From: Minisyncoccota bacterium
GTDB taxonomy: Bacteria > Patescibacteriota > Minisyncoccia > Phycocordibacterales > UBA918
Reading direction: 5' to 3'
DNA: 52,944 nt
Assembly: GCA_937975855.1 (NCBI GenBank)
Contig: CALJTT010000005.1
Coordinates: 1 to 52,944, forward strand
Shown here: positions 12,904 through 40,841 of the stretch, in pieces
How the letters are laid out: every line of letters starts with the position of its first letter
Position numbering within the stretch: position 1 is the stretch's first letter
Program-made: the position numbers and the translations under genes
The notes under the pieces: model-generated
The model's database searches: none
What the model saw: only the letters and a program-made list of their open reading frames with translations
Told to the model about the DNA's origin: nothing

Positions 12904-13500
12904 CTAATCCTTTTTTGTTCGGGCACTTTCCTCCTTCAATTCTTCAGTAGAGAATGTTGTGAGACCAACAATGACTAGGATCACAAATATGATCCACAAT
13001 AGCCAGCTGGTTCTGGTATAGGTTCGTGTAGCCGAGAAGCTTTCGAGCGAGCCTTCGATTTTCGAACTAAACGTTAGACTTCTCCAGGACGGATGCTTTA
13101 AGGCGAAGTCGGTGTTGTTTACGGCCCAGGTTGTCGTCCAGCCACCGTCCTCGTCTCTTTCATGGTTGAGTTTTGTAGCGTAGGAAACCCTGATGACAGG
13201 ATCCTCGGCTTGTTCTTTGCATGTACGCGTTTTTTTATCACGTTTCAAGCAGAGCAACATCTGTTTAACACCTACGTGTACGACGCGACCATCTACAGAG
13301 AGTTGTTTTATTTTCGCCACCGTCACGTTTTGGCTGGTTCCATGACTTGAAGTCAGCCAGTTTACTTTAGTTTTTTCGTAGTTCTCCGGTTTCCAGAAAT
13401 CCTCACTGATATCATGTGGAGGTGTGGCACGAAAATTAGAGATTGCTACAACCGCCGCTAAAGAAAGAAAAAAACAACCGAAAATTTTTGAAAGTGACAT
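12904..13500 (-). CDS. Hypothetical membrane protein
   Basis: N- and C-terminal TM segments; TTGACA-17-TATAAC promoter upstream. Confidence 0.7.
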   Translation of the reverse strand: MSLSKIFGCFFLSLAAVVAISNFRATPPHDISEDFWKPENYEKTKVNWLTSSHGTSQNVTVAKIKQLSVDGRVVHVGVKQMLLCLKRDKKTRTCKEQAEDPVIRVSYATKLNHERDEDGGWTTTWAVNNTDFALKHPSWRSLTFSSKIEGSLESFSATRTYTRTSWLLWIIFVILVIVGLTTFSTEELKEESARTKKD

Positions 13501-13642
13501 TCTATGCCCCCTTAGATAAAAACAAAACGATCCAACCGCGCCGGATCTTCTATGTTTGTTATAGCGGTTGCATTTTTGTTTGTCAATGAAAAGAAAACCG
13601 GCGCGCCCTTAGGCTACGCCGGTTTTCTTTAACTCTTACAGC

Positions 13643-30835: not shown

Positions 30836-32362
30836 ATGAAACGATTCAGCGAACAATTTCATAAAAAATCTCAGACTGTAAAGCTCAACAAAGCCGAGCA
30901 GGCTGATTTGCGTTCCCGAGTTGTTTCGTACATGGAGTATCACCCATTGCCGGCAGAGATGAAATTGACTTCAGCAGCCAAAACTAAAAAAGCATCTGCT
31001 CAACCTATAATGCGCGAGCCTTTTGCTATTTATAACGTACCGTTTGCTCAGTTATTTAAATTCGGCAGTATGTTTGCTTTCATCATGGTGATGGTGGTGC
31101 CATTTGTCGCCGAGCGAGCTATTCCTGGCGACACTCTCTACGCCGTCAAGGTTAATTTTAATGAAGAAGTACGCAGCACTTTGGCCTGGAGTCCATATCA
31201 AAAGGTTGAATGGGAAACTGTTCGTTTGAATCGCCGCATCGCCGAGGCGAAGTTGCTGCAAAAAGAAGGCCTTCTTACTGATGTGGTTGAGGCTGAAGTA
31301 GCCGCCGCGGTAAAGTACCACGCTGAAAACGCCAAAGCCGAGATCGAAACCCTGCGCGCTTCAGACGCCGACGAAGCAGCCATTGCTTCTATTGAACTTG
31401 ATGCAAACCTGACACTGCAGGCACAGTCTTTTGACTCTGTTTTAGGTGACGAAGCAGCTGGTTCAACTGGCACCGACCTAATTGCTGATGCTATTGACGC
31501 TTCATTAGTTAAACAACTTTCAAACGCAACTACCAGTTTGCCCGCCTTGCCAAAACTCATTGCTCGTGTCGAACAAAACACCACCCGCGTACGAGAGCTT
31601 GAGAAGACACTTATCGGCCAAGTTGGCTCCGAGGTTATGTCTGACGTGACGCGTCGTATTGTAGACCTAGAGCGAGTAGCGGCTGAAGCATTCAACCTGC
31701 CAGAAGAAGAGGTAAAGAAAGCCCAGACGTTGTTGGTTGACGTTATCAGCCGGGCTCAGACTTTGGTTGTGTACATGACGGAACTAGACGTGCGTGAGAC
31801 TGTCGCGATCAACACAGCCGTGCCAGTAGTCCTCACAACCGATGAGATTAACATCAACCGCACAGAAATAATGAGCCAGATTGATACTTATATTTCTCAG
31901 ATCAACAATAGCGAAGTGGAAGAAGAGGCTTTGTTGGAGAAGTTGGCTGTAGCAGCGCAGCAGATGGAGGATATAAAAGCTGAACTGCAGGACGTTGATG
32001 TCTATGAGACTTACCTAGCACGTAGCGCCGACGCACTAGCTCTTGGCCACGATGCTGTTATCTTGATTGAGCAGTCAGGTGTGTCAGTTTCTAACCAGAT
32101 CCCCGCAGTGGGCGTAGCCAGCAGTACAGAATCTATTGCAACCAGCACAGCCACATCTACAGAGGAGATCGCAGAGCCATCTGAAGAAGAAACGCCCGTT
32201 ATGGAAACCGGTGATATCGAAATAGTCGCAAGTACCACTGATCAAATCATCGAGCCAGTAGTGCCTACCAGCACAGCCCCGACAACTGAAGAGGTTGACG
32301 TCGTAGACGATATTTCGTCTAGTAGCACCCAAACACAGTCAGAACTTGACGAAGAAATTTAG
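30836..32362 (+). CDS. Putative anti-sigma membrane protein (DUF5667-like)
   Basis: Follows the ECF gene; TM then AIPGDTLYAVK...E; Thr/Ser/Glu-rich tail. Confidence 0.7.
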   Translation: MKRFSEQFHKKSQTVKLNKAEQADLRSRVVSYMEYHPLPAEMKLTSAAKTKKASAQPIMREPFAIYNVPFAQLFKFGSMFAFIMVMVVPFVAERAIPGDTLYAVKVNFNEEVRSTLAWSPYQKVEWETVRLNRRIAEAKLLQKEGLLTDVVEAEVAAAVKYHAENAKAEIETLRASDADEAAIASIELDANLTLQAQSFDSVLGDEAAGSTGTDLIADAIDASLVKQLSNATTSLPALPKLIARVEQNTTRVRELEKTLIGQVGSEVMSDVTRRIVDLERVAAEAFNLPEEEVKKAQTLLVDVISRAQTLVVYMTELDVRETVAINTAVPVVLTTDEININRTEIMSQIDTYISQINNSEVEEEALLEKLAVAAQQMEDIKAELQDVDVYETYLARSADALALGHDAVILIEQSGVSVSNQIPAVGVASSTESIATSTATSTEEIAEPSEEETPVMETGDIEIVASTTDQIIEPVVPTSTAPTTEEVDVVDDISSSSTQTQSELDEEI

Positions 32363-32539
32363 AAGAGTATATTGAATTTATGCAGTTTGTGTACCAAAAT
32401 CGATCAGTCAGTAAAAACGTCGCGATCGCTTCGATTCTGCTGCTGATCCTGCTCGTTTAGCAGGTCAGTTTTGGTATAAGAACACAGCACGCTCCTAATC
32501 AAAACCGACCCGCCCAAATGCAGGTCGGTTTTGATTAGG
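32346..32539 (+). promoter_or_regulatory. Leader-peptide attenuator (Ile/Leu/Val-sensing candidate)
   Basis: TTGACG-16-TATATT; 1:2 32443-32453 with 32459-32468; segment 2 (32460-32475) is 14/16 identical to segment 4 (32520-32535); terminator 32494-32539. Confidence 0.85.
32380..32460 (+). CDS. Leader peptide MQFVYQNRSVSKNVAIASILLLILLV (26 aa)
   Basis: Leaderless ATG; the last 8 codons are all Ile/Leu/Val. Confidence 0.8.
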   Translation: MQFVYQNRSVSKNVAIASILLLILLV

Positions 32540-32580
32540 GATAAAAAGTTCTTTGCGTAACAACAAGATGGGAGGAAAAG

Positions 32581-32865
32581 ATGATCCAAATATTTCAGTG
32601 GGTGAAACGGCTCTGGTTTAGCCCTGATCCTGGTGGACGAATCACCTTCGAAACAGCTTTTGCTGGATGGACAGGAGAAGCACTCGAGTGGTCGCGCGAA
32701 CGTGCCGAAGCTGGGTTTGACGGTTACGGAGATCCACTACCAACCAGCCTGATCGAATCTGCAAGGGTTCTGTCAACACAATGGTCCTACGGACCGCCGC
32801 CGCCAATCTGCCCACGTCTGCTGGCAGAAACACATGGGGCAGGTTGCCTCGCAACAACATCCTGA
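32581..32865 (+). CDS. Hypothetical protein (94 aa)
   Basis: GGAGG SD; first ORF after the attenuator. Confidence 0.55.
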   Translation: MIQIFQWVKRLWFSPDPGGRITFETAFAGWTGEALEWSRERAEAGFDGYGDPLPTSLIESARVLSTQWSYGPPPPICPRLLAETHGAGCLATTS

Positions 32866-32876
32866 GGAGGAACAGC

Positions 32877-33104
32877 ATGAGACGGAGAAGTTTTCTCTTA
32901 TCAACAGCAGCATTTGTGGCCGCTGCCGTGACACCAGTCGCGGCAGCAGAGTCACTTCCCGAACTAGTCCAAGCTTTTCTTCGTACACACGGCGGAGAAG
33001 TCGAAATGAAACTCTCGGTAATGTTCGGTGGATGGGTGACTTTCGAGAATGCAAGTGCTGATCAGGTTTACCAAGCGATCGCTTCAGTTCAGCTGGACTA
33101 CTAA
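32877..33104 (+). CDS. Small exported protein with twin-arginine-like signal
   Basis: GAGGAGG SD; MRRRSFLLSTAAFVAAAVTPVAAA. Confidence 0.65.
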   Translation: MRRRSFLLSTAAFVAAAVTPVAAAESLPELVQAFLRTHGGEVEMKLSVMFGGWVTFENASADQVYQAIASVQLDY

Positions 33105-33107
33105 ACC

Positions 33108-33383
33108 ATGGACGGAACGGCACCAGGCAAAGGAATTCATCCAGGGAAAGTTGCAGATCGCGAGGAAGTCCAGATAGCTCTTAAAAGAGTTGCTCTAGAC
33201 GATCCAGCAATCGTGTCCGATCTGTGCAACTTACGATTCACCGTGCACTGGTTAAGGGGATACATCAAGGTCCGCACCAAGGATCGTGGTCCTGACAACG
33301 TGGTGACTCATTACGAAGCGATGAGGCACGTCATGGCGAAAACGACTTTGCGAGTGTCCAAACGGGACGAAATGACCCTTTGA
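33108..33383 (+). CDS. Hypothetical protein (91 aa)
   Basis: Starts 3 nt after the previous stop; terminator at ~33400-33440 follows. Confidence 0.5.
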   Translation: MDGTAPGKGIHPGKVADREEVQIALKRVALDDPAIVSDLCNLRFTVHWLRGYIKVRTKDRGPDNVVTHYEAMRHVMAKTTLRVSKRDEMTL

Positions 33384-33449
33384 CCTCTTTTTGTGTACAA
33401 CGAAACCCGCGCCGGGAAACTGGCGCGGGTTTGTTCGTTTTCGTTCTTT

Positions 33450-34358
33450 TTAAGAAGGGAAGCTTAGCCAGTCCTTGTAGTCCTCTTCCTGGCCACACAC
33501 TATATTGAAGAAAGTTTGTTTGATTTCATTCGCAGCTGTCAGATCGTACTCAGCCAGAGTCTTGCCTTTTTGATCAATTTTATCAATGGGCGATATTTCA
33601 GCTGCTGTACCAGTAAAGAATGCACTATCAAAATCAGCCACTTCATCTAGCGTGATGTCTCGCTCTACTGTTGTGTAACCCATGTTACTTGTGAAGGTAA
33701 TGACTGAATCGCGAGTGATCCCAGCTAGAATTTTGCCAAGTTTTGGTGTGTGTAGTTCCTTTCCTTTGATAAAGAATATGTTTTCGCCTGGACCTTCTGC
33801 GATATTGTCATTATGGTCAAGTAGCAGGGCCTCCAGATAACCGTTCCTTTTTGCTTGGACAGTAGCCAGAATAGAGTTTACATAGTGACCTGAAATCTTT
33901 GCGTCGCATATCGTGCTTTTTTCAGATATGCGTCGGTAGTCGGATACTTCCACTGATACAGAGTCAGCTAGATACTGGCCCCAGGCCCACGCAGCTATAA
34001 ACACGTGTGTACTGTTTTTGGTTGGGTTGATGCCCATTGAGCTGTCGTCAAAGTACACTATTGGTCGAATGTATGCTTCGGATAGGTTGTTCTCAGTGAC
34101 TGCCTGATGACACGCTTCCATTAATTCAGACTTTGAGTAGGGAATTTCAAGGAATATTTTTTCAGCCGAGTAGAAAAGACGATCGACGTGTTCTTCCAGT
34201 CTGAATATGTGAGTTTTGTTGTCAGTTGTTTCGTAAGCCCGAATTCCTTCGAACACACCAGACCCATAATGGAGCGTATGAGTAAGCGGTGACAAATTCG
34301 TTTCGCTAAATGGAACCAAAGTGCCGTTTAGCCAAACTTTATGATTTTTTTCTAGCAT
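33450..34358 (-). CDS. ilvE: Branched-chain amino acid aminotransferase
   Basis: LHYGSGVFEGIRAY, AKISGHY, EGPGENIF, GITR, TGTAAE. Confidence 0.96.
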   Translation of the reverse strand: MLEKNHKVWLNGTLVPFSETNLSPLTHTLHYGSGVFEGIRAYETTDNKTHIFRLEEHVDRLFYSAEKIFLEIPYSKSELMEACHQAVTENNLSEAYIRPIVYFDDSSMGINPTKNSTHVFIAAWAWGQYLADSVSVEVSDYRRISEKSTICDAKISGHYVNSILATVQAKRNGYLEALLLDHNDNIAEGPGENIFFIKGKELHTPKLGKILAGITRDSVITFTSNMGYTTVERDITLDEVADFDSAFFTGTAAEISPIDKIDQKGKTLAEYDLTAANEIKQTFFNIVCGQEEDYKDWLSFPS

Positions 34359-34432
34359 AAGAAGTAAAGTGTATCAAAAAATGATCGGGCATGCATTTCT
34401 AAGTCACCCTCCTTCCTTTTTTTTGAGTGCTG

Positions 34433-34574
34433 TGATATATTGAAATTAATGAAAATTTTACAAACAGCCTCATATTTCTTTTGGTTTACCAACCGGGAAA
34501 CTCGGGCTGTTTTGACGTAATGTGAACACATTCTCAAAAACCGCGGGTTTCCTACAAGGAACCCGCGGTTTTTG
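34433..34574 (+). promoter_or_regulatory. Leader-peptide attenuator (aromatic amino acid-sensing candidate)
   Basis: TGaTATATT extended -10; 1:2 AAACAGCC/GGCTGTTT; 2:3 GGAAACTCG/CGGGTTTCC; terminator 34535-34574 with T-run. Confidence 0.85.
34449..34520 (+). CDS. Leader peptide MKILQTASYFFWFTNRETRAVLT (23 aa)
   Basis: Leaderless ATG; five consecutive aromatic codons YFFWF. Confidence 0.8.
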   Translation: MKILQTASYFFWFTNRETRAVLT

Positions 34575-34704
34575 TTGGTCGAAAGAAGGATATATTCTAA
34601 AAATGTCTTGCTTTCGGCTCACAATCTCAGTGAGTTCGAATCAACGGGGCCGACCATCGGACGCCCAAACTTAGATCTTCAACAATAAACGAAAGGGCAG
34701 TAAG

Positions 34705-35790
34705 ATGCTTGACTCTACAGACGGATTCGATCCGACTCAATCGCAACCACTTTCAATTGGAGGGTGGGAGACCCAAATAAGCGATCAGCCAGTCGTTTTG
34801 GCGAAGTGGCAGAGAGGCCGGCTGGAAACAGTACTGAATCAACAGTATTTGCCGGCAGTTCGGGAACTATTTCTGGGTAAGCGCCCACAAGGTAATCGGT
34901 GGTTTGCTGAGCAAAATGCGCCGGCGCCGATAGTTAGATTCGACATGGCGCCGATGATCGATGTTCCCGACGAATCGGGTAAAGAAGATCAAGTCACAGC
35001 AGCGCGCGCTGCCGTGGGGCTGGGTATCTGGGAGATCGAGGCAAACACGGCTGGACTTGGCATAGCCACGAAATTGGGTTTGCCGGTTGCGGCACGTCTT
35101 TTCTCCACCCTGCAACAATCTGGTATAAGTCGTATTGGGTATGCAGCGTCAGAATCACGTTCTAACCAAGCTGGTGATTTGCAAGTGCTGATGTCCAATC
35201 TGGAGTCTTACGGAGTGGAAACTGTTCCGGTTAATCTGGACGGCGAAATTCCGGCCGACCTGCCGCTATGGCTTCGCGCTGGAGCAGAGGACTTGGTGGC
35301 TGGCGGTTCGTTGCTGAGTCGACTCCCGCAATGCTTGATGTGGCATCCTGATGGTGGCGGATCGAAACAGTATCTCTTCGATCTTGATCCAAGCGTCACA
35401 CGTGCAAGCGATATCGTAAATCTTGCGTCGGTTCCAACTCGGTTTGACACAGGTGTGGTGCTCAAGCCTATCAATGGTTGGGGCGCTCGAGACATAACCA
35501 TACACGCTCGGGAACAGCCGTTTAAAAAACGGTCAGACAAGGCTGGTCGTTTGTTTTCGACCCTCCAGAGACTCCGTGCACAGGGCGCGGACTCGCAGTA
35601 TCTGCTGCAACGGTTTGCGCCGCCGCAGTCCATTGGTGAGGGCTTTCTGGCGTGGCGAGTGTTGGCGGTGTGGCAGCCTAAGCGACAGGCGTACCAGATC
35701 ATCGGGGGTATCTGGAACTACCGCAAGGGCGATATTCGCTTGCACGGTACACCAGAAACGATCAACGGTCCGATATTAGTCGATAAATAA
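34705..35790 (+). CDS. ATP-grasp ligase (glutathionylspermidine synthase / circularly permuted type)
   Basis: VRFD, WEIEAN-x-AG, SKQYL, VLKPINGWGA, YLLQRF. Confidence 0.65.
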   Translation: MLDSTDGFDPTQSQPLSIGGWETQISDQPVVLAKWQRGRLETVLNQQYLPAVRELFLGKRPQGNRWFAEQNAPAPIVRFDMAPMIDVPDESGKEDQVTAARAAVGLGIWEIEANTAGLGIATKLGLPVAARLFSTLQQSGISRIGYAASESRSNQAGDLQVLMSNLESYGVETVPVNLDGEIPADLPLWLRAGAEDLVAGGSLLSRLPQCLMWHPDGGGSKQYLFDLDPSVTRASDIVNLASVPTRFDTGVVLKPINGWGARDITIHAREQPFKKRSDKAGRLFSTLQRLRAQGADSQYLLQRFAPPQSIGEGFLAWRVLAVWQPKRQAYQIIGGIWNYRKGDIRLHGTPETINGPILVDK

Positions 35791-35861
35791 CCTCGTCCTC
35801 AAAGGGGCGTCGCACTGCGACGCCCCTTTCTCAATTATTAATTATCAATTAAGATGTTGTT

Positions 35862-36764
35862 ATGAGTAAATTTTCAATTGCCATTCACGGAGGAGCGGGT
35901 GCGCTGAGTGACGTGAGTGAGCATCGAACAGCTTTGACCGAAATTATTAACGAAGCCGCTAACTTGGCTTCTAATGCGTCGGCAATTGATGTGGTCGAGC
36001 GAACAGTTGTACTTTTAGAAAACCATCCGTTGTTTAACGCTGGGAAAGGTTCTGTTCTAAACAATAAAGGTGAAGTCGAGTGTGACGCTGCGATCATGAA
36101 TGGTACAGATCTCGATGCTGGGGCTGTTGCAGGAGTTAGAGGAATTAAAAATCCCGTCGCGTTGGCTCGAAAAGTTATGAGTGATAGCGAGCACGTGATG
36201 CTGGTAGGTGATGGAGCTTTAGAATTCGCCGCAAGTGTTAACGCTCCAACGGAGCAGCTAGATTATTTTGTCGTAGAGTCACGGCTGAAGCAGCTAGAAG
36301 AAGCAAAAAAAGCCGGCAAGGTTGTACTTGATCACAGTGATACTGAAGAAGAGAAGTTGGGTACAGTCGGTGCTGTGGCAATTGACGATAAGGGAAATCT
36401 AGCGGCAGCAACCTCTACCGGGGGTATTGTTAACAAGAAGTTTGGGCGAGTTGGTGACTCTCCGGTAGTCGGTGCAGGCGTGTACGCAGAGAATGGATTG
36501 TGTGCTGTTTCTGCAACTGGGTTTGGTGAGCAATTTTTACGCACAACCCTGAGTAAACATATTGGTGACTGGATGAGATACAATCATGTTGATGCTCAAT
36601 CAGCTGCTCAGGCTGGCATTGACTATCTGGTTGAAAAAGTGAATGGATTGGGTGGTGTGATTGTGGTTGATGCAAATTATAATATCGGTATTGCTCACAG
36701 TACCCCATTGATTTTGTCGGCTAGTATTTGTTCGGGAGAGACAGGCGCAAGACTTGATTTTTAA
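35862..36764 (+). CDS. iaaA: Isoaspartyl peptidase / L-asparaginase (Ntn hydrolase)
   Basis: IHGGAG, FNAGKG, GTVGAVA, ATSTGG, GRVGDSP. Confidence 0.95.
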   Translation: MSKFSIAIHGGAGALSDVSEHRTALTEIINEAANLASNASAIDVVERTVVLLENHPLFNAGKGSVLNNKGEVECDAAIMNGTDLDAGAVAGVRGIKNPVALARKVMSDSEHVMLVGDGALEFAASVNAPTEQLDYFVVESRLKQLEEAKKAGKVVLDHSDTEEEKLGTVGAVAIDDKGNLAAATSTGGIVNKKFGRVGDSPVVGAGVYAENGLCAVSATGFGEQFLRTTLSKHIGDWMRYNHVDAQSAAQAGIDYLVEKVNGLGGVIVVDANYNIGIAHSTPLILSASICSGETGARLDF

Positions 36765-36991
36765 TTCAAAGAGAAAAGCCGTCGGACCCCTCCGACGGCT
36801 TTTCCCATTTGGGTTTAAGAATATTCTAGGAAAGAACTACGCTATATACTTCCCGCGCCGCTATCTTCAGTCATGCGGGAATTGCTATGATACGCTTGCT
36901 TACTAAACTTACAATAAAATGCGTGTGTACATTGAGTGAATCTGGTCAATCTGATACGCTTCCATTAAGTTGTCAATAAAATCATCTCGTT

Positions 36992-39315: not shown

Positions 39316-39386
39316 GCGGGATTAGTTAAATGGTATAACATCTGCCTTCCAAGCAGAGGTCAGGAGTTCGATTCCCCTATCCCGCA
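39316..39386 (+). tRNA. tRNA-Gly (TCC), integration target
   Basis: Cloverleaf; TCTGC-CTTCCAA-GCAGA anticodon arm. Confidence 0.96.
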
Positions 39387-40841
39387 CATCATCGAAAAAC
39401 TAGCATCAGAAGGGGTGTTTGCTAGTAAGTCATACGGACTTTTAACCTTAGTTTCCAATACTTTTCTATCTTTCAGCGAACCGTTCGATAGTACTTCGTA
39501 GGCTATTTCTCGCTTCCGCTTTGGCGATGCCTTCACATACCTAGATTTGGCCCTATTGCTGAACAAAAACAGGTTTTTCGTCCGTTCGAGAGTGACGTAC
39601 GGGTCTTGGTGGTTCTGCTTCATTTGTTGCAAATTTTGCTCGAGTGACAACTTTGCCAGTTTAATTTCTTTTTGCTTTTCGTCGTAGATTGTCTGGTCGA
39701 TATTGCTAGCCAGAAAGGCATCAAGTAGTCGACCTTCCTTTTCTTTGATGGCAGTGATTTCAGTTTCAAGGTTTGCTAAGACCTCAGTATTGAACGTGTC
39801 TTCATGCTCAACCTTTTCTTTGGCTGCTTGGTACATGAGTTCAATTAACTCTTCGTCAAACTTGATATCGTCAAATATCTGCACAAACTGCTCTTCCAGT
39901 TTCTCTTGTCTTAAGAATAATTTCTTCTGGTCGCAGATACCTTTCCCATTAGTGCAGTGATAATACGTGTAGCCTTTTTGTACCTCTGCGGTAACGGCAC
40001 ACCCACAGACACCGCAGGTAAATAGTCCAGTTAGCGGGAAGAGGTGTTTTTGTTTGCGAGGTTTCGCACCACCCGTCATTACCTCTTGGCAAGTTTCAAA
40101 CTTGTCTTTGGTTGTCATGGTCGGACAGGCTGATTTGTAATAGTTACCACCGTAACGAATTATTCCGTGGTAAATAGGGTTCTGCAAAATGTGACGTACG
40201 GTACCAGGATGTACTTTTTTGCCAGCAGTGGTTCGCAAACCTCTTTGATATAATTCAGCAGCTAATTCCTTAAAACTGTATCTACCAGTTGAATAGAGGT
40301 CGAACATTATCTGCACGTACTTGCTACGCACAGGGTCGAGTATAAGTGTCTTGTCGGCTTTGTTATTTAGATAGCCAAATGGTGCGTAGCAGGGGTAGCC
40401 ACCTTGGTTTAGTTTCTCTCGATTTCCCCGTTTGACATTCTCAGACAGGTCTCGCGAAAATTGGTTTGCCACACCAAGTTCAAACAACATCAGATAGACA
40501 GGTTCACTAGGTAGGTATTCCTTACTGGGAGTCTGGATACTTTTTATGACTGACTGTTGCAACAGGTCAATTACCAAACCACCATCGACTAAGTTTCGAG
40601 CTAGTCTGTCCAGTTTCCACACCAACAACCCGTCAGCTTTACCAGACTGAATACGATTCATCACTTCAGCAAACACTGGCCTGCCAATTGTTTTAGCAGA
40701 GCGGCTTTCATGGTGGACTTCAGATATTTCAAGATTATTTCTAGCTGCATACTCACGCAACTCTCGCTCTTGTGCATCCAGTGATTGAACTTGTCTGTCT
40801 TCAGATTCTTGTGATTTTCGGCAGTATAAGATGTATTTCAT
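39360..40841 (-). CDS. Large serine recombinase (integrase); last codons are antisense to the tRNA
   Basis: YCRKS catalytic Ser, LDRLARN, APFGY, CGVCG...YYHC Zn ribbon, coiled coil. Confidence 0.95.
   Translation of the reverse strand: MKYILYCRKSQESEDRQVQSLDAQERELREYAARNNLEISEVHHESRSAKTIGRPVFAEVMNRIQSGKADGLLVWKLDRLARNLVDGGLVIDLLQQSVIKSIQTPSKEYLPSEPVYLMLFELGVANQFSRDLSENVKRGNREKLNQGGYPCYAPFGYLNNKADKTLILDPVRSKYVQIMFDLYSTGRYSFKELAAELYQRGLRTTAGKKVHPGTVRHILQNPIYHGIIRYGGNYYKSACPTMTTKDKFETCQEVMTGGAKPRKQKHLFPLTGLFTCGVCGCAVTAEVQKGYTYYHCTNGKGICDQKKLFLRQEKLEEQFVQIFDDIKFDEELIELMYQAAKEKVEHEDTFNTEVLANLETEITAIKEKEGRLLDAFLASNIDQTIYDEKQKEIKLAKLSLEQNLQQMKQNHQDPYVTLERTKNLFLFSNRAKSRYVKASPKRKREIAYEVLSNGSLKDRKVLETKVKSPYDLLANTPSDASFSMMCGIGESNS

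Follow-up and report, generated by a model that had tools for sequence, protein, structure and literature searches.

A predicted transcription attenuator in a Minisyncoccota genome belongs to a portable cassette family of one genus

In a stretch of 52,944 nucleotides (nt) of a Minisyncoccota bacterium (contig CALJTT010000005.1 of assembly GCA_937975855.1; the whole stretch is called here the window), a short leader reading frame followed by a terminator hairpin had been described, from the letters alone, as a textbook Ile/Leu/Val leader in front of three orphan open reading frames (ORFs). We found that this element is a member of a genus-specific family of portable cassettes and not a remnant of ilv regulation. 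With moderate confidence, we interpret it as a self-contained cassette that works by ribosome-mediated transcription attenuation. The attenuator part of the original prediction stood, as the leader ORF, an antiterminator overlapping its stop codon and the terminator are conserved in 60 copies, but the assignment to the ilv/leu type did not, given the unrelated cargo and the absence of a match in Rfam.

Leader, terminator and competing helices in the window

The leader short ORF (sORF) lies at 32380-32460 on the plus strand and has 26 codons plus a TAG stop codon (32458-32460), with the translation MQFVYQNRSVSKNVAIASILLLILLV; its described ending, ILLLILLV, was confirmed. It is preceded by a promoter on the same strand (32346-32373) with 10/12 matches, made up of a -35 box TTGACG (32346-32351), a 16-nt spacer and a -10 box TATATT (32368-32373), which overlaps the 3' end of a gene for a DUF5667 protein (stop codon at 32360-32362). 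The ATG begins 6 nt past the -10 box and carries no Shine-Dalgarno sequence. Since a -10 box placed 6-8 nt upstream of the ATG, which is the typical spacing across the family, leaves no room for such a sequence, the transcript of the window probably starts at, or 1-2 bases from, the AUG, that is, as a leaderless mRNA.

Downstream, an intrinsic terminator (32494-32539, plus strand) consists of two 20-nt arms (32494-32513 and 32520-32539) that are 95% complementary and enclose a loop at 32514-32519; the arms include an A-tract and a T-tract, the latter (TTTTGATT, 32529-32536) lying inside the 3' arm. From the last base of the stop codon onwards, positions 32460-32473 (GCAGGTCAGTTTTG) are identical to 32520-32533 at 13/14 positions, so that the near-duplication of a terminator arm previously noticed is real, and they are complementary to 32500-32513 at 12/14. 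Because it repeats the 3' arm of the terminator, the stop-codon segment can pair with the 5' arm: the putative antiterminator segment ("segment 2", 32459-32476, plus strand), which begins at the stop codon, pairs with 32497-32513 with a dG of -16.8 kcal/mol. When the whole upstream transcript was considered, the terminator 5' arm formed its best duplex with the stop-codon segment, and this was matched by 1/1000 dinucleotide shuffles. The fold of the leader had a z of -7.0 against 200 shuffles. Two other plus-strand helices engage the same segment. The 5' strand of helix P1, a putative anti-antiterminator (32385-32399), pairs with 32469-32483 over 15 nt (80% complementary) and is part of the minimum free energy (MFE) fold, while a small hairpin, P3 (32448-32464), pairs CCUGC (32448-32452) with GCAGG (32460-32464) and ties up the antiterminator segment at its 5' end. 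P1 is extra strong in the window copy, whose stop codon is about seven codons further upstream than in most sister copies.

These features suggest the following mechanism. The near-consensus sigma-70-type promoter would yield an RNA starting at the AUG of the 26-codon frame, and this RNA could adopt either of two folds. In one of them, P1 and P3 would lock 32459-32476, the terminator at 32494-32539 would form and transcription would end before the first orphan, ORF1; in the other, 32459-32476 would pair with 32497-32513 and RNA polymerase would continue into the three promoter-less orphans. The choice between the folds, presumably kinetic, would be made by the position of the ribosome on the sORF: a ribosome at the last codons or at the stop would cover the segment and lead to termination, and one ribosome, or two queued, delayed on Ile19-Leu-Leu-Leu-Ile23 would open P1 and P3, leave the segment free and permit read-through.

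A masking model of the window copy, which assumes a ribosome footprint of -15 to +13 nt and minimum-energy folds, predicted that the antiterminator forms when codons 2-8 or 22-23 hold a single ribosome and when a disome is led by codons 17-23 (ASILLLI), and that it forms neither in the absence of ribosomes nor when one occupies codon 24 or any later position up to the stop. These states match the classical three-state logic and would place the Leu/Ile codons at 32434-32448 (plus strand) at the sensing position; the candidate sensing codons are Ile19, Leu20, Leu21, Leu22 and Ile23 (ATT CTG CTG CTG ATC). In the model, the window copy would behave like the classical trp type.

A cassette family and its conserved parts

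The genome holding the window (as contig C5) comprises 661 kb in 30 contigs and is 66% complete. DNA BLAST of 32300-33460 against 40 relatives gave nothing useful and, since the family is too diverged for this method, relatives were sought via synteny and then with a covariance model. The ECF sigma factor gene upstream is a core gene (59/61 genus genomes), and it belongs to a backbone, traced at 21 loci and then at 34 more, that consists of the sigma factor, the DUF5667 protein, a variable gap, an MscS-type channel and a gene of 360 amino acids. In 13 of about 53 genomes with a readable DUF5667 3' flank, a homologous cassette directly follows the DUF5667 stop codon, with the same arrangement as in the window, namely TTGAC(A), 17 nt, TATAtT, 6-8 nt, ATG, a frame of 24-36 codons and a terminator; relatives with a short gap (0.15-0.43 kb) and no cassette present only a plain terminator before the next backbone gene. 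With a covariance model (R1) derived from the 13 copies, we obtained 58 full-length matches at E <= 3e-8 in 50/128 genus genomes and zero matches at E <= 1e-6 in 150 other genomes of the same order, which represent more than 100 families. As sampled, the cassette appears to be restricted to one genus. The figures that follow refer to 60 copies from 50 genomes aligned to R1 (alignment A4).

The promoter of the cassette scores 11/12 in 45 copies, 10/12 in 13 and 9/12 in 2, and TTGAC is invariant in alignment A2. All copies (60/60) have an ATG-initiated sORF of 21-40 codons just past the -10 box, with the ATG in one shared alignment column in 56/60. In 59/60 copies the frame set by this ATG stays open as far as the antiterminator, as against 3/60 and 25/60 for the other two frames. 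Relative to the position where the antiterminator begins, the stop codon is found between -4 and +27 nt in 60/60, and exactly 17 nt after it in 31. In the terminator helix, to which the alignment was fitted, 93.6% of the cells are paired and 98 are double-change cells. For the antiterminator, whose helix was not used to fit the columns, 76.2% of the cells are paired versus 71.7% in shuffles, and there are 41 double-change cells versus the 22.4 expected from shuffles; 0/500 shuffles reached either value, although these counts overstate the significance because the copies are related. Slid controls of the antiterminator were 23-46% paired. In an alignment-free search, the 5' arm of the terminator found its best partner between -30 and +25 nt relative to the stop codon in 59/60 copies, and in 52/60 at most 10/200 shuffles were as good; for these duplex tests, the arms were chosen by eye in 13 sequences and defined by model columns in all 60. 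Where terminators are odd, they are paired with correspondingly odd antiterminator segments (G044, G061, L118 and L135).

Folding the leaders alone, with no ribosome, left the antiterminator segment 77% paired inside the leader. A helix of the P1 type, joining the first 45 nt (about codons 3-8) to the stop-codon region, was present in 57/60 of these leader-only MFEs, and a local hairpin equivalent to P3 in 30/60. In snapshot folds of the 60 copies, taken before the 3' arm of the terminator exists, the antiterminator was formed in 38/60 with no ribosome, in 43/60 with a ribosome stalled about 20 nt upstream and in 6/60 with a ribosome at the stop. It is a robust prediction of this modelling that a ribosome reaching the end of the sORF would enforce termination.

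Copies occur in tandem in several genomes, with four in G053 (L061), four in G093 (L141), three in G126 (L128) and two each in G084 (L147) and G125 (L146), separated by one or few genes, and the leaders of a single array can differ in flavour (Phe/Trp-rich, IISIII and mixed). A start of the form M-Q-x-x-(A/Y)-T-T-T (A4 columns about 55-70, codons 4-9) is common among the leaders and absent from the window copy; its Thr codons (ACA ACA AC) are the P1 5' strand and may be structural only or a second sensing site. In 32/60 copies, but not in that of the window, a second long perfect palindrome is located 6-80 nt past the cassette terminator (for example in L046, L047, L073, L109, L117 and L147). 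Its stem measures 12-27 base pairs (16-27 in all but two), the loop is usually of 4 nt and no T-tract follows. The letters vary and the pairing remains perfect, often as GGCCGG..GGAAAA..TTGAAG / CTTCAA..TTTTCC..CCGGCC; RNase III cleavage, protein binding and recombination are all conceivable roles.

An insertion hot spot (32363-36990 in the window; L013 and L044-L063 in relatives) separates the DUF5667 gene from the MscS gene; it spans from 0.15 to about 5.6 kb and differs in content in nearly every species. In the window it contains the cassette, the three orphans, ilvE, an orphan of 361 amino acids (54% G+C) and a gene of the asparaginase-2 family. A second cassette of the same build is located at 34440-34580 on the plus strand, in the divergent gap beside ilvE and before the 361-amino-acid ORF (34705-35790). 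It has TGaTATATT with an ATG 7 nt on, an sORF at 34449-34520 of aromatic flavour (MKILQTASYFFWFTNRETRAVLT) and a terminator at about 34536-34575 whose 5' arm finds its best partner -23 to -4 nt from the sORF stop, a pairing matched by 13/1000 shuffles; R1 gave no match there. A weak R1 match at 13499-13631 turned out to be only an intergenic terminator. A crude genome-wide pattern scan returned the window copy and one doubtful candidate (G000, C1:8007-8096, plus strand), where a small ORF (MQHQAFAIQMVRPVLFIFSIKSVTHNRTV) is followed by a hairpin and there is no clear -35 box. About 2.3 kb past the hot spot, a tRNA gene (39316-39386) adjoins a minus-strand ORF of 493 amino acids (39316-40841 region) that is 67.5% identical to its counterpart in G022 and looks, by eye, like a serine recombinase.

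Cargo, sensing codons and rival explanations

The three small ORFs after the leader were indeed orphans, as none of them matched any Pfam or NCBIfam family. ORF1 (32581-32865, plus strand) encodes 94 amino acids behind a Shine-Dalgarno sequence, GGGAGG, at 32570-32575; ORF2 (32877-33104, plus strand) encodes 75 and ORF3 (33108-33383, plus strand), which starts 4 nt past the ORF2 stop, encodes 91. The only relative of ORF1 and ORF2 is a 99%-identical twin, both on one other contig of 6 kb; ORF3 had no relative among 1.84 billion cluster representatives and the ESM Atlas gave no usable match for ORF1. Their coding scores (0.115, 0.231 and 0.144, respectively) are inside the range of real genes, for which 90-codon windows of the long genes of the genome gave a 5th percentile of 0.089 and a median of 0.234 (off-frame median, -0.60), so that they look like real genes, if foreign-looking ones. 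Their G+C content is 50-57% as compared to about 44% nearby. By eye only, the N-terminus of ORF2 (MRRRSFLLSTAAFVAAAVTPVAAA; 32877-32950, MRRRSFLLSTAAFVAAAVTPVAAAE) resembles a twin-arginine or Sec export signal. The 41 nt between the terminator and ORF1 hold no promoter, the best match being 6/12. At the other end, a two-way terminator (33403-33432; 13 pairs, 9 of them G-C) closes both the three-gene unit and the convergent ilvE (33450-34358, minus strand), which passes the NCBIfam cut-offs for a branched-chain aminotransferase, as expected from its earlier annotation.

The cargo differs from copy to copy and is mutually unrelated, and the window ORFs match none of the sister cargo. A family of about 320 amino acids without a Pfam match, fused in one genome to a class-I glutamine amidotransferase domain, comes first among the real genes behind 10 copies. 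Behind 6 copies there are ATP-grasp-like proteins and behind one a DAHP synthase, and many cargo proteins have 50-130 amino acids and no relatives. A GCS2-like label for the 320-amino-acid family was considered and is not claimed, as it came from one weak Pfam match to a different protein plus motifs seen by eye. In 45/52 gaps between terminator and first gene the best promoter match was at most 8/12, so the cargo genes are mostly without promoters of their own. The idea that the orphans had replaced a lost ilv operon found no backing. What follows the leader in relatives is unrelated accessory genes, with no Pfam family of ilv/leu biosynthesis among the 42 scanned proteins (41 in the hot spot), and ilvD was over the cut-off in 0/128 genus genomes, while 14/14 control genomes scored. 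In the window genome, at its 66% completeness, ilvD, KARI and Iso_dh (isopropylmalate-dehydrogenase-type) were not found. As these genomes show no branched-chain pathway, the supply would depend on uptake. The ilvE gene is itself rare in the genus (6/61 genomes). Its ortholog in G022 likewise lies past a Leu-rich cassette (ALLLIL), in convergent orientation to it, and the cargo of that cassette is different; this arrangement may reflect shared ancestry of the hot spot.

To characterize the codons that a stalled ribosome would read, we took as the sensing window the A-site positions 13-28 nt upstream of the antiterminator. In the 60 copies its codons are F (25%), L (21%), I (18%), V (16%) and W (5%), together 85%, as compared to genome-wide shares of 9.0% for L, 6.2% for I and 7.8% for V. 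Some runs are rich in Phe/Trp (FFFFTF, IFFWFF, FWFWF), others in Ile (IISIII, three copies) or in Leu/Ile/Val (ILLLI in the window, ALLLIL, VILLVL, VVVVIL), and the rest are mixed. This, together with the missing Rfam match and the non-biosynthetic cargo, disagrees with the "textbook" ilv/leu leader of the original prediction. At least three aromatic residues occur in the sensing window of 9/10 leaders before the 320-amino-acid family and of 5/6 before ATP-grasp-like genes, although this link is not independent evidence because each leader is inherited along with its cargo. Leaders of the Leu/Val type are mostly followed by small orphans, which is also the case in the window. DAHP synthase is the first enzyme of aromatic amino acid synthesis, and the leader directly before its gene in G102 (L107:1501-2928; MYTVSTTIAEMQYNSQVWFMFFFSFYAFMSGSVGV; Pfam E = 5e-83) has the sensing window FFFSFY, which makes it the one case found where leader flavour agrees with the pathway of the cargo.

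Twelve close leader pairs differed at 50 synonymous and 156 non-synonymous codons; the conserved leader stretches were kept as nucleotides and the replacements within the run stayed hydrophobic. Such changes indicate selection on RNA pairing and codon class rather than on the exact peptide, which fits a sensor, although the same pattern is also compatible with a loosely constrained membrane helix, as most copies have 17-20 hydrophobic residues. For the window copy, the likeliest signal would be a shortage of charged Leu/Ile tRNA. Its branched-chain specificity is plausible and falls short of established because the sensing codons of the sister copies are Phe/Trp-rich or Ile/Leu/Val-rich; accordingly graded, a response of the orphans to branched-chain amino acid starvation is possible. 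A wider reading that we put forward tentatively, and hold to be possible rather than probable, is that the genus, one of ultra-small bacteria dependent on external amino acids, has re-tuned the codon run (aromatic, isoleucine or Leu/Val) of a portable cassette (promoter, leaderless sensor ORF and switchable terminator) placed, often in tandem, before horizontally exchanged genes, and that the whole would form a ribosome-read regulon reporting which host-derived amino acids are scarce, with the window copy as the Leu/Ile-tuned member in charge of three secreted or unknown orphans.

The same hardware might instead carry a general signal. The cassette would then report how closely ribosomes trail RNA polymerase, and any slowdown of translation would open the gate, be it an overall shortage of amino acids, the ribosome-targeting antibiotics of neighbours or poor leaderless initiation, without amino-acid-specific meaning in the hydrophobic codons. 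The variation of the sensing codons among copies (Phe/Trp-, Ile- or Leu/Val-rich, or mixed) and the lack of relationship among cargo genes are in line with this, as is the fact that the main contrast among the snapshots is between a ribosome at the stop (6/60) and all else (38/60 and 43/60); moreover, antibiotic-responsive leader-peptide attenuators are documented, mef/mel being an example (PMC4335068). However, the hydrophobic run is kept despite mostly non-synonymous change, which argues that something selects these codon classes, some copies carry near-homopolymeric runs (IISIII; FFFF) typical of amino-acid sensors, and an aromatic-rich leader precedes the DAHP synthase gene, so that we consider a purely general signal rather unlikely, if the most serious of the competitors. 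It is also conceivable, and in our opinion unlikely, that the sORF is a gene in its own right for a small membrane peptide, with a leaky terminator giving high peptide and low cargo levels and with pairings that serve mRNA stability. Most copies do show a polar N-half followed by 17-20 hydrophobic residues and an (S/G)(G/W)(S/P)VG(V/I)-like tail, amino acid replacements stay hydrophobic, and the cassettes own a strong promoter and terminator. Nevertheless, the hydrophobic stretch of the window peptide has 13 residues (VAIASILLLILLV) at the very C-terminus, below the approximately 17 needed to span a membrane, and G006 and G061 are likewise truncated, yet all three keep the antiterminator. The excess of non-synonymous over synonymous codons in the 12 pairs, with stretches conserved at the nucleotide level, also speaks against this reading, and such a gene gives no reason for a stop-codon segment that copies and co-varies with a terminator arm, or for cargo genes that mostly have no promoters.

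Two other explanations deserve less credit. A locus similar to those of type I toxins, in which a tightly folded mRNA with a long-range 5'-3' helix restrains the translation of a small hydrophobic toxin, would account for the size and hydrophobicity of the peptide, for the long-range helix in 57/60 copies and for the tandem copies in a variable region. We judge it very improbable, since the best match to a promoter on the minus strand is 9/12 and no convincing antisense promoter was seen, the cassettes point into mostly promoter-less genes, the peptide of the window falls short of the length of a membrane span, and the stop-codon segment pairs with the terminator rather than with a ribosome-binding site. 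To the simplest proposal, a plain terminator of the sigma/DUF5667 operon with the sORF and the repeat arising by chance, we give almost no credence: although the hairpin is 132 nt past the DUF5667 stop and in the same orientation, 60 copies, many of which are far from DUF5667 or in tandem, share the promoter, ATG, open frame and antiterminator, and cassette-free relatives have precisely a plain terminator in a short gap of 0.15-0.43 kb.

Other observations weigh against the attenuator itself. The covariation of the antiterminator is modest and comes from related copies, in which kinship alone can beat all shuffles. The footprint used for masking was an assumption. In the snapshot folds 38/60 copies already form the antiterminator without a ribosome, so that the logic may differ between copies. 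A switch at equilibrium was discarded, because the terminator was kept in 54-58/60 full-length MFEs under every ribosome mask; as the terminator wins at equilibrium, any switch must be kinetic. Throughout the family, the hydrophobic run is never made of a single amino acid, and its 17-20 residues in most copies have the length of a membrane helix, which suggests that the peptide itself may be selected. Finally, the genes regulated in the window are orphans without an assigned function, and the transcription start, the 3' end at the terminator and the translation of the sORF are predictions made from sequence.

Comparison with known attenuators and leader peptides

To our knowledge, ribosome-mediated attenuation occurs almost only before biosynthetic operons of free-living bacteria, and in the literature, subscription journals aside, we found no paper linking Patescibacteria or the Candidate Phyla Radiation with transcription attenuation. 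The cassette would bring attenuator logic to a new setting, that of a mobile, self-promoted and presumably leaderless module in a genus with genomes of 0.5-1.7 Mb, where it would control the variable accessory genes of an insertion hot spot. Should the codon runs truly act as sensors, they would offer a direct, testable read-out of the nutrients that limit these hard-to-culture organisms and a functional entry point to dozens of orphans, which would be expressed under a shortage of Leu/Ile or of Phe, in a cassette that, with 200 nt, is compact enough for work in a laboratory host.

The classical ribosome-mediated attenuators are the trp, leu, ilvGMEDA/ilvBN, pheA, thr and his leaders of enterobacteria. 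With them the cassette shares a short leader ORF, anti-antiterminator, antiterminator and terminator pairings predicted to exclude one another, a candidate codon run where a stalled ribosome would free the antiterminator and, in the window copy as modelled, termination in the absence of translation. It differs in its start, which is probably leaderless and not led by a Shine-Dalgarno sequence, in a cargo that is orphan or accessory and not biosynthetic for the sensed amino acid, in a hydrophobic run that is mixed and varies between copies, and in having its own consensus promoter and recurring, also in tandem, before unrelated genes. In Rfam searches of the window at the gathering thresholds we found 4 tRNAs and no leader family, and at E values up to 10 there were only hairpin-like chance matches far below gathering, again without a leader family. 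Membership in the trp/leu/ilv/phe attenuator families fails on the regulated genes, on the Rfam models and on the Shine-Dalgarno-led start. Type I toxin mRNAs, of which hok, ldr and aapA-type are examples, resemble the cassette in that the peptide is small and hydrophobic, the mRNA is compact and has a 5'-3' helix, and copies occur in tandem; the cassette, however, has no evident antisense RNA gene, is coupled to promoter-less genes and has a segment pairing with a terminator arm.

Closer in some respects is the mef(E)/mel system (PMC4335068), in which, reportedly, a leader peptide and a terminator gate travel with accessory or mobile genes and stalling is the trigger; in our case there is no downstream resistance gene and no known stalling motif was identified. 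In concept, the nearest published relative would be the polycysteine short ORFs of mycobacteria (Canestrari et al., 10.1101/834739). As described there, the first cistron is a leaderless short ORF, as it probably is in the cassette, the RNA further downstream is reshaped when a ribosome pauses on a codon tract, and many independent copies exert control at the operon level, which led its authors to the idea of a "ribulon". According to the same source (10.1101/834739), the mycobacterial tracts are of Cys, the cargo belongs to cysteine metabolism and the short ORFs act on the next gene's ribosome-binding site and not on a terminator, whereas the cassette has hydrophobic tracts and a heterogeneous cargo. 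Unlike the polycysteine type, its alternative structure is a terminator placed 41 nt before ORF1, and the Shine-Dalgarno sequence of ORF1 (32570-32575) stays outside the conserved pairings.

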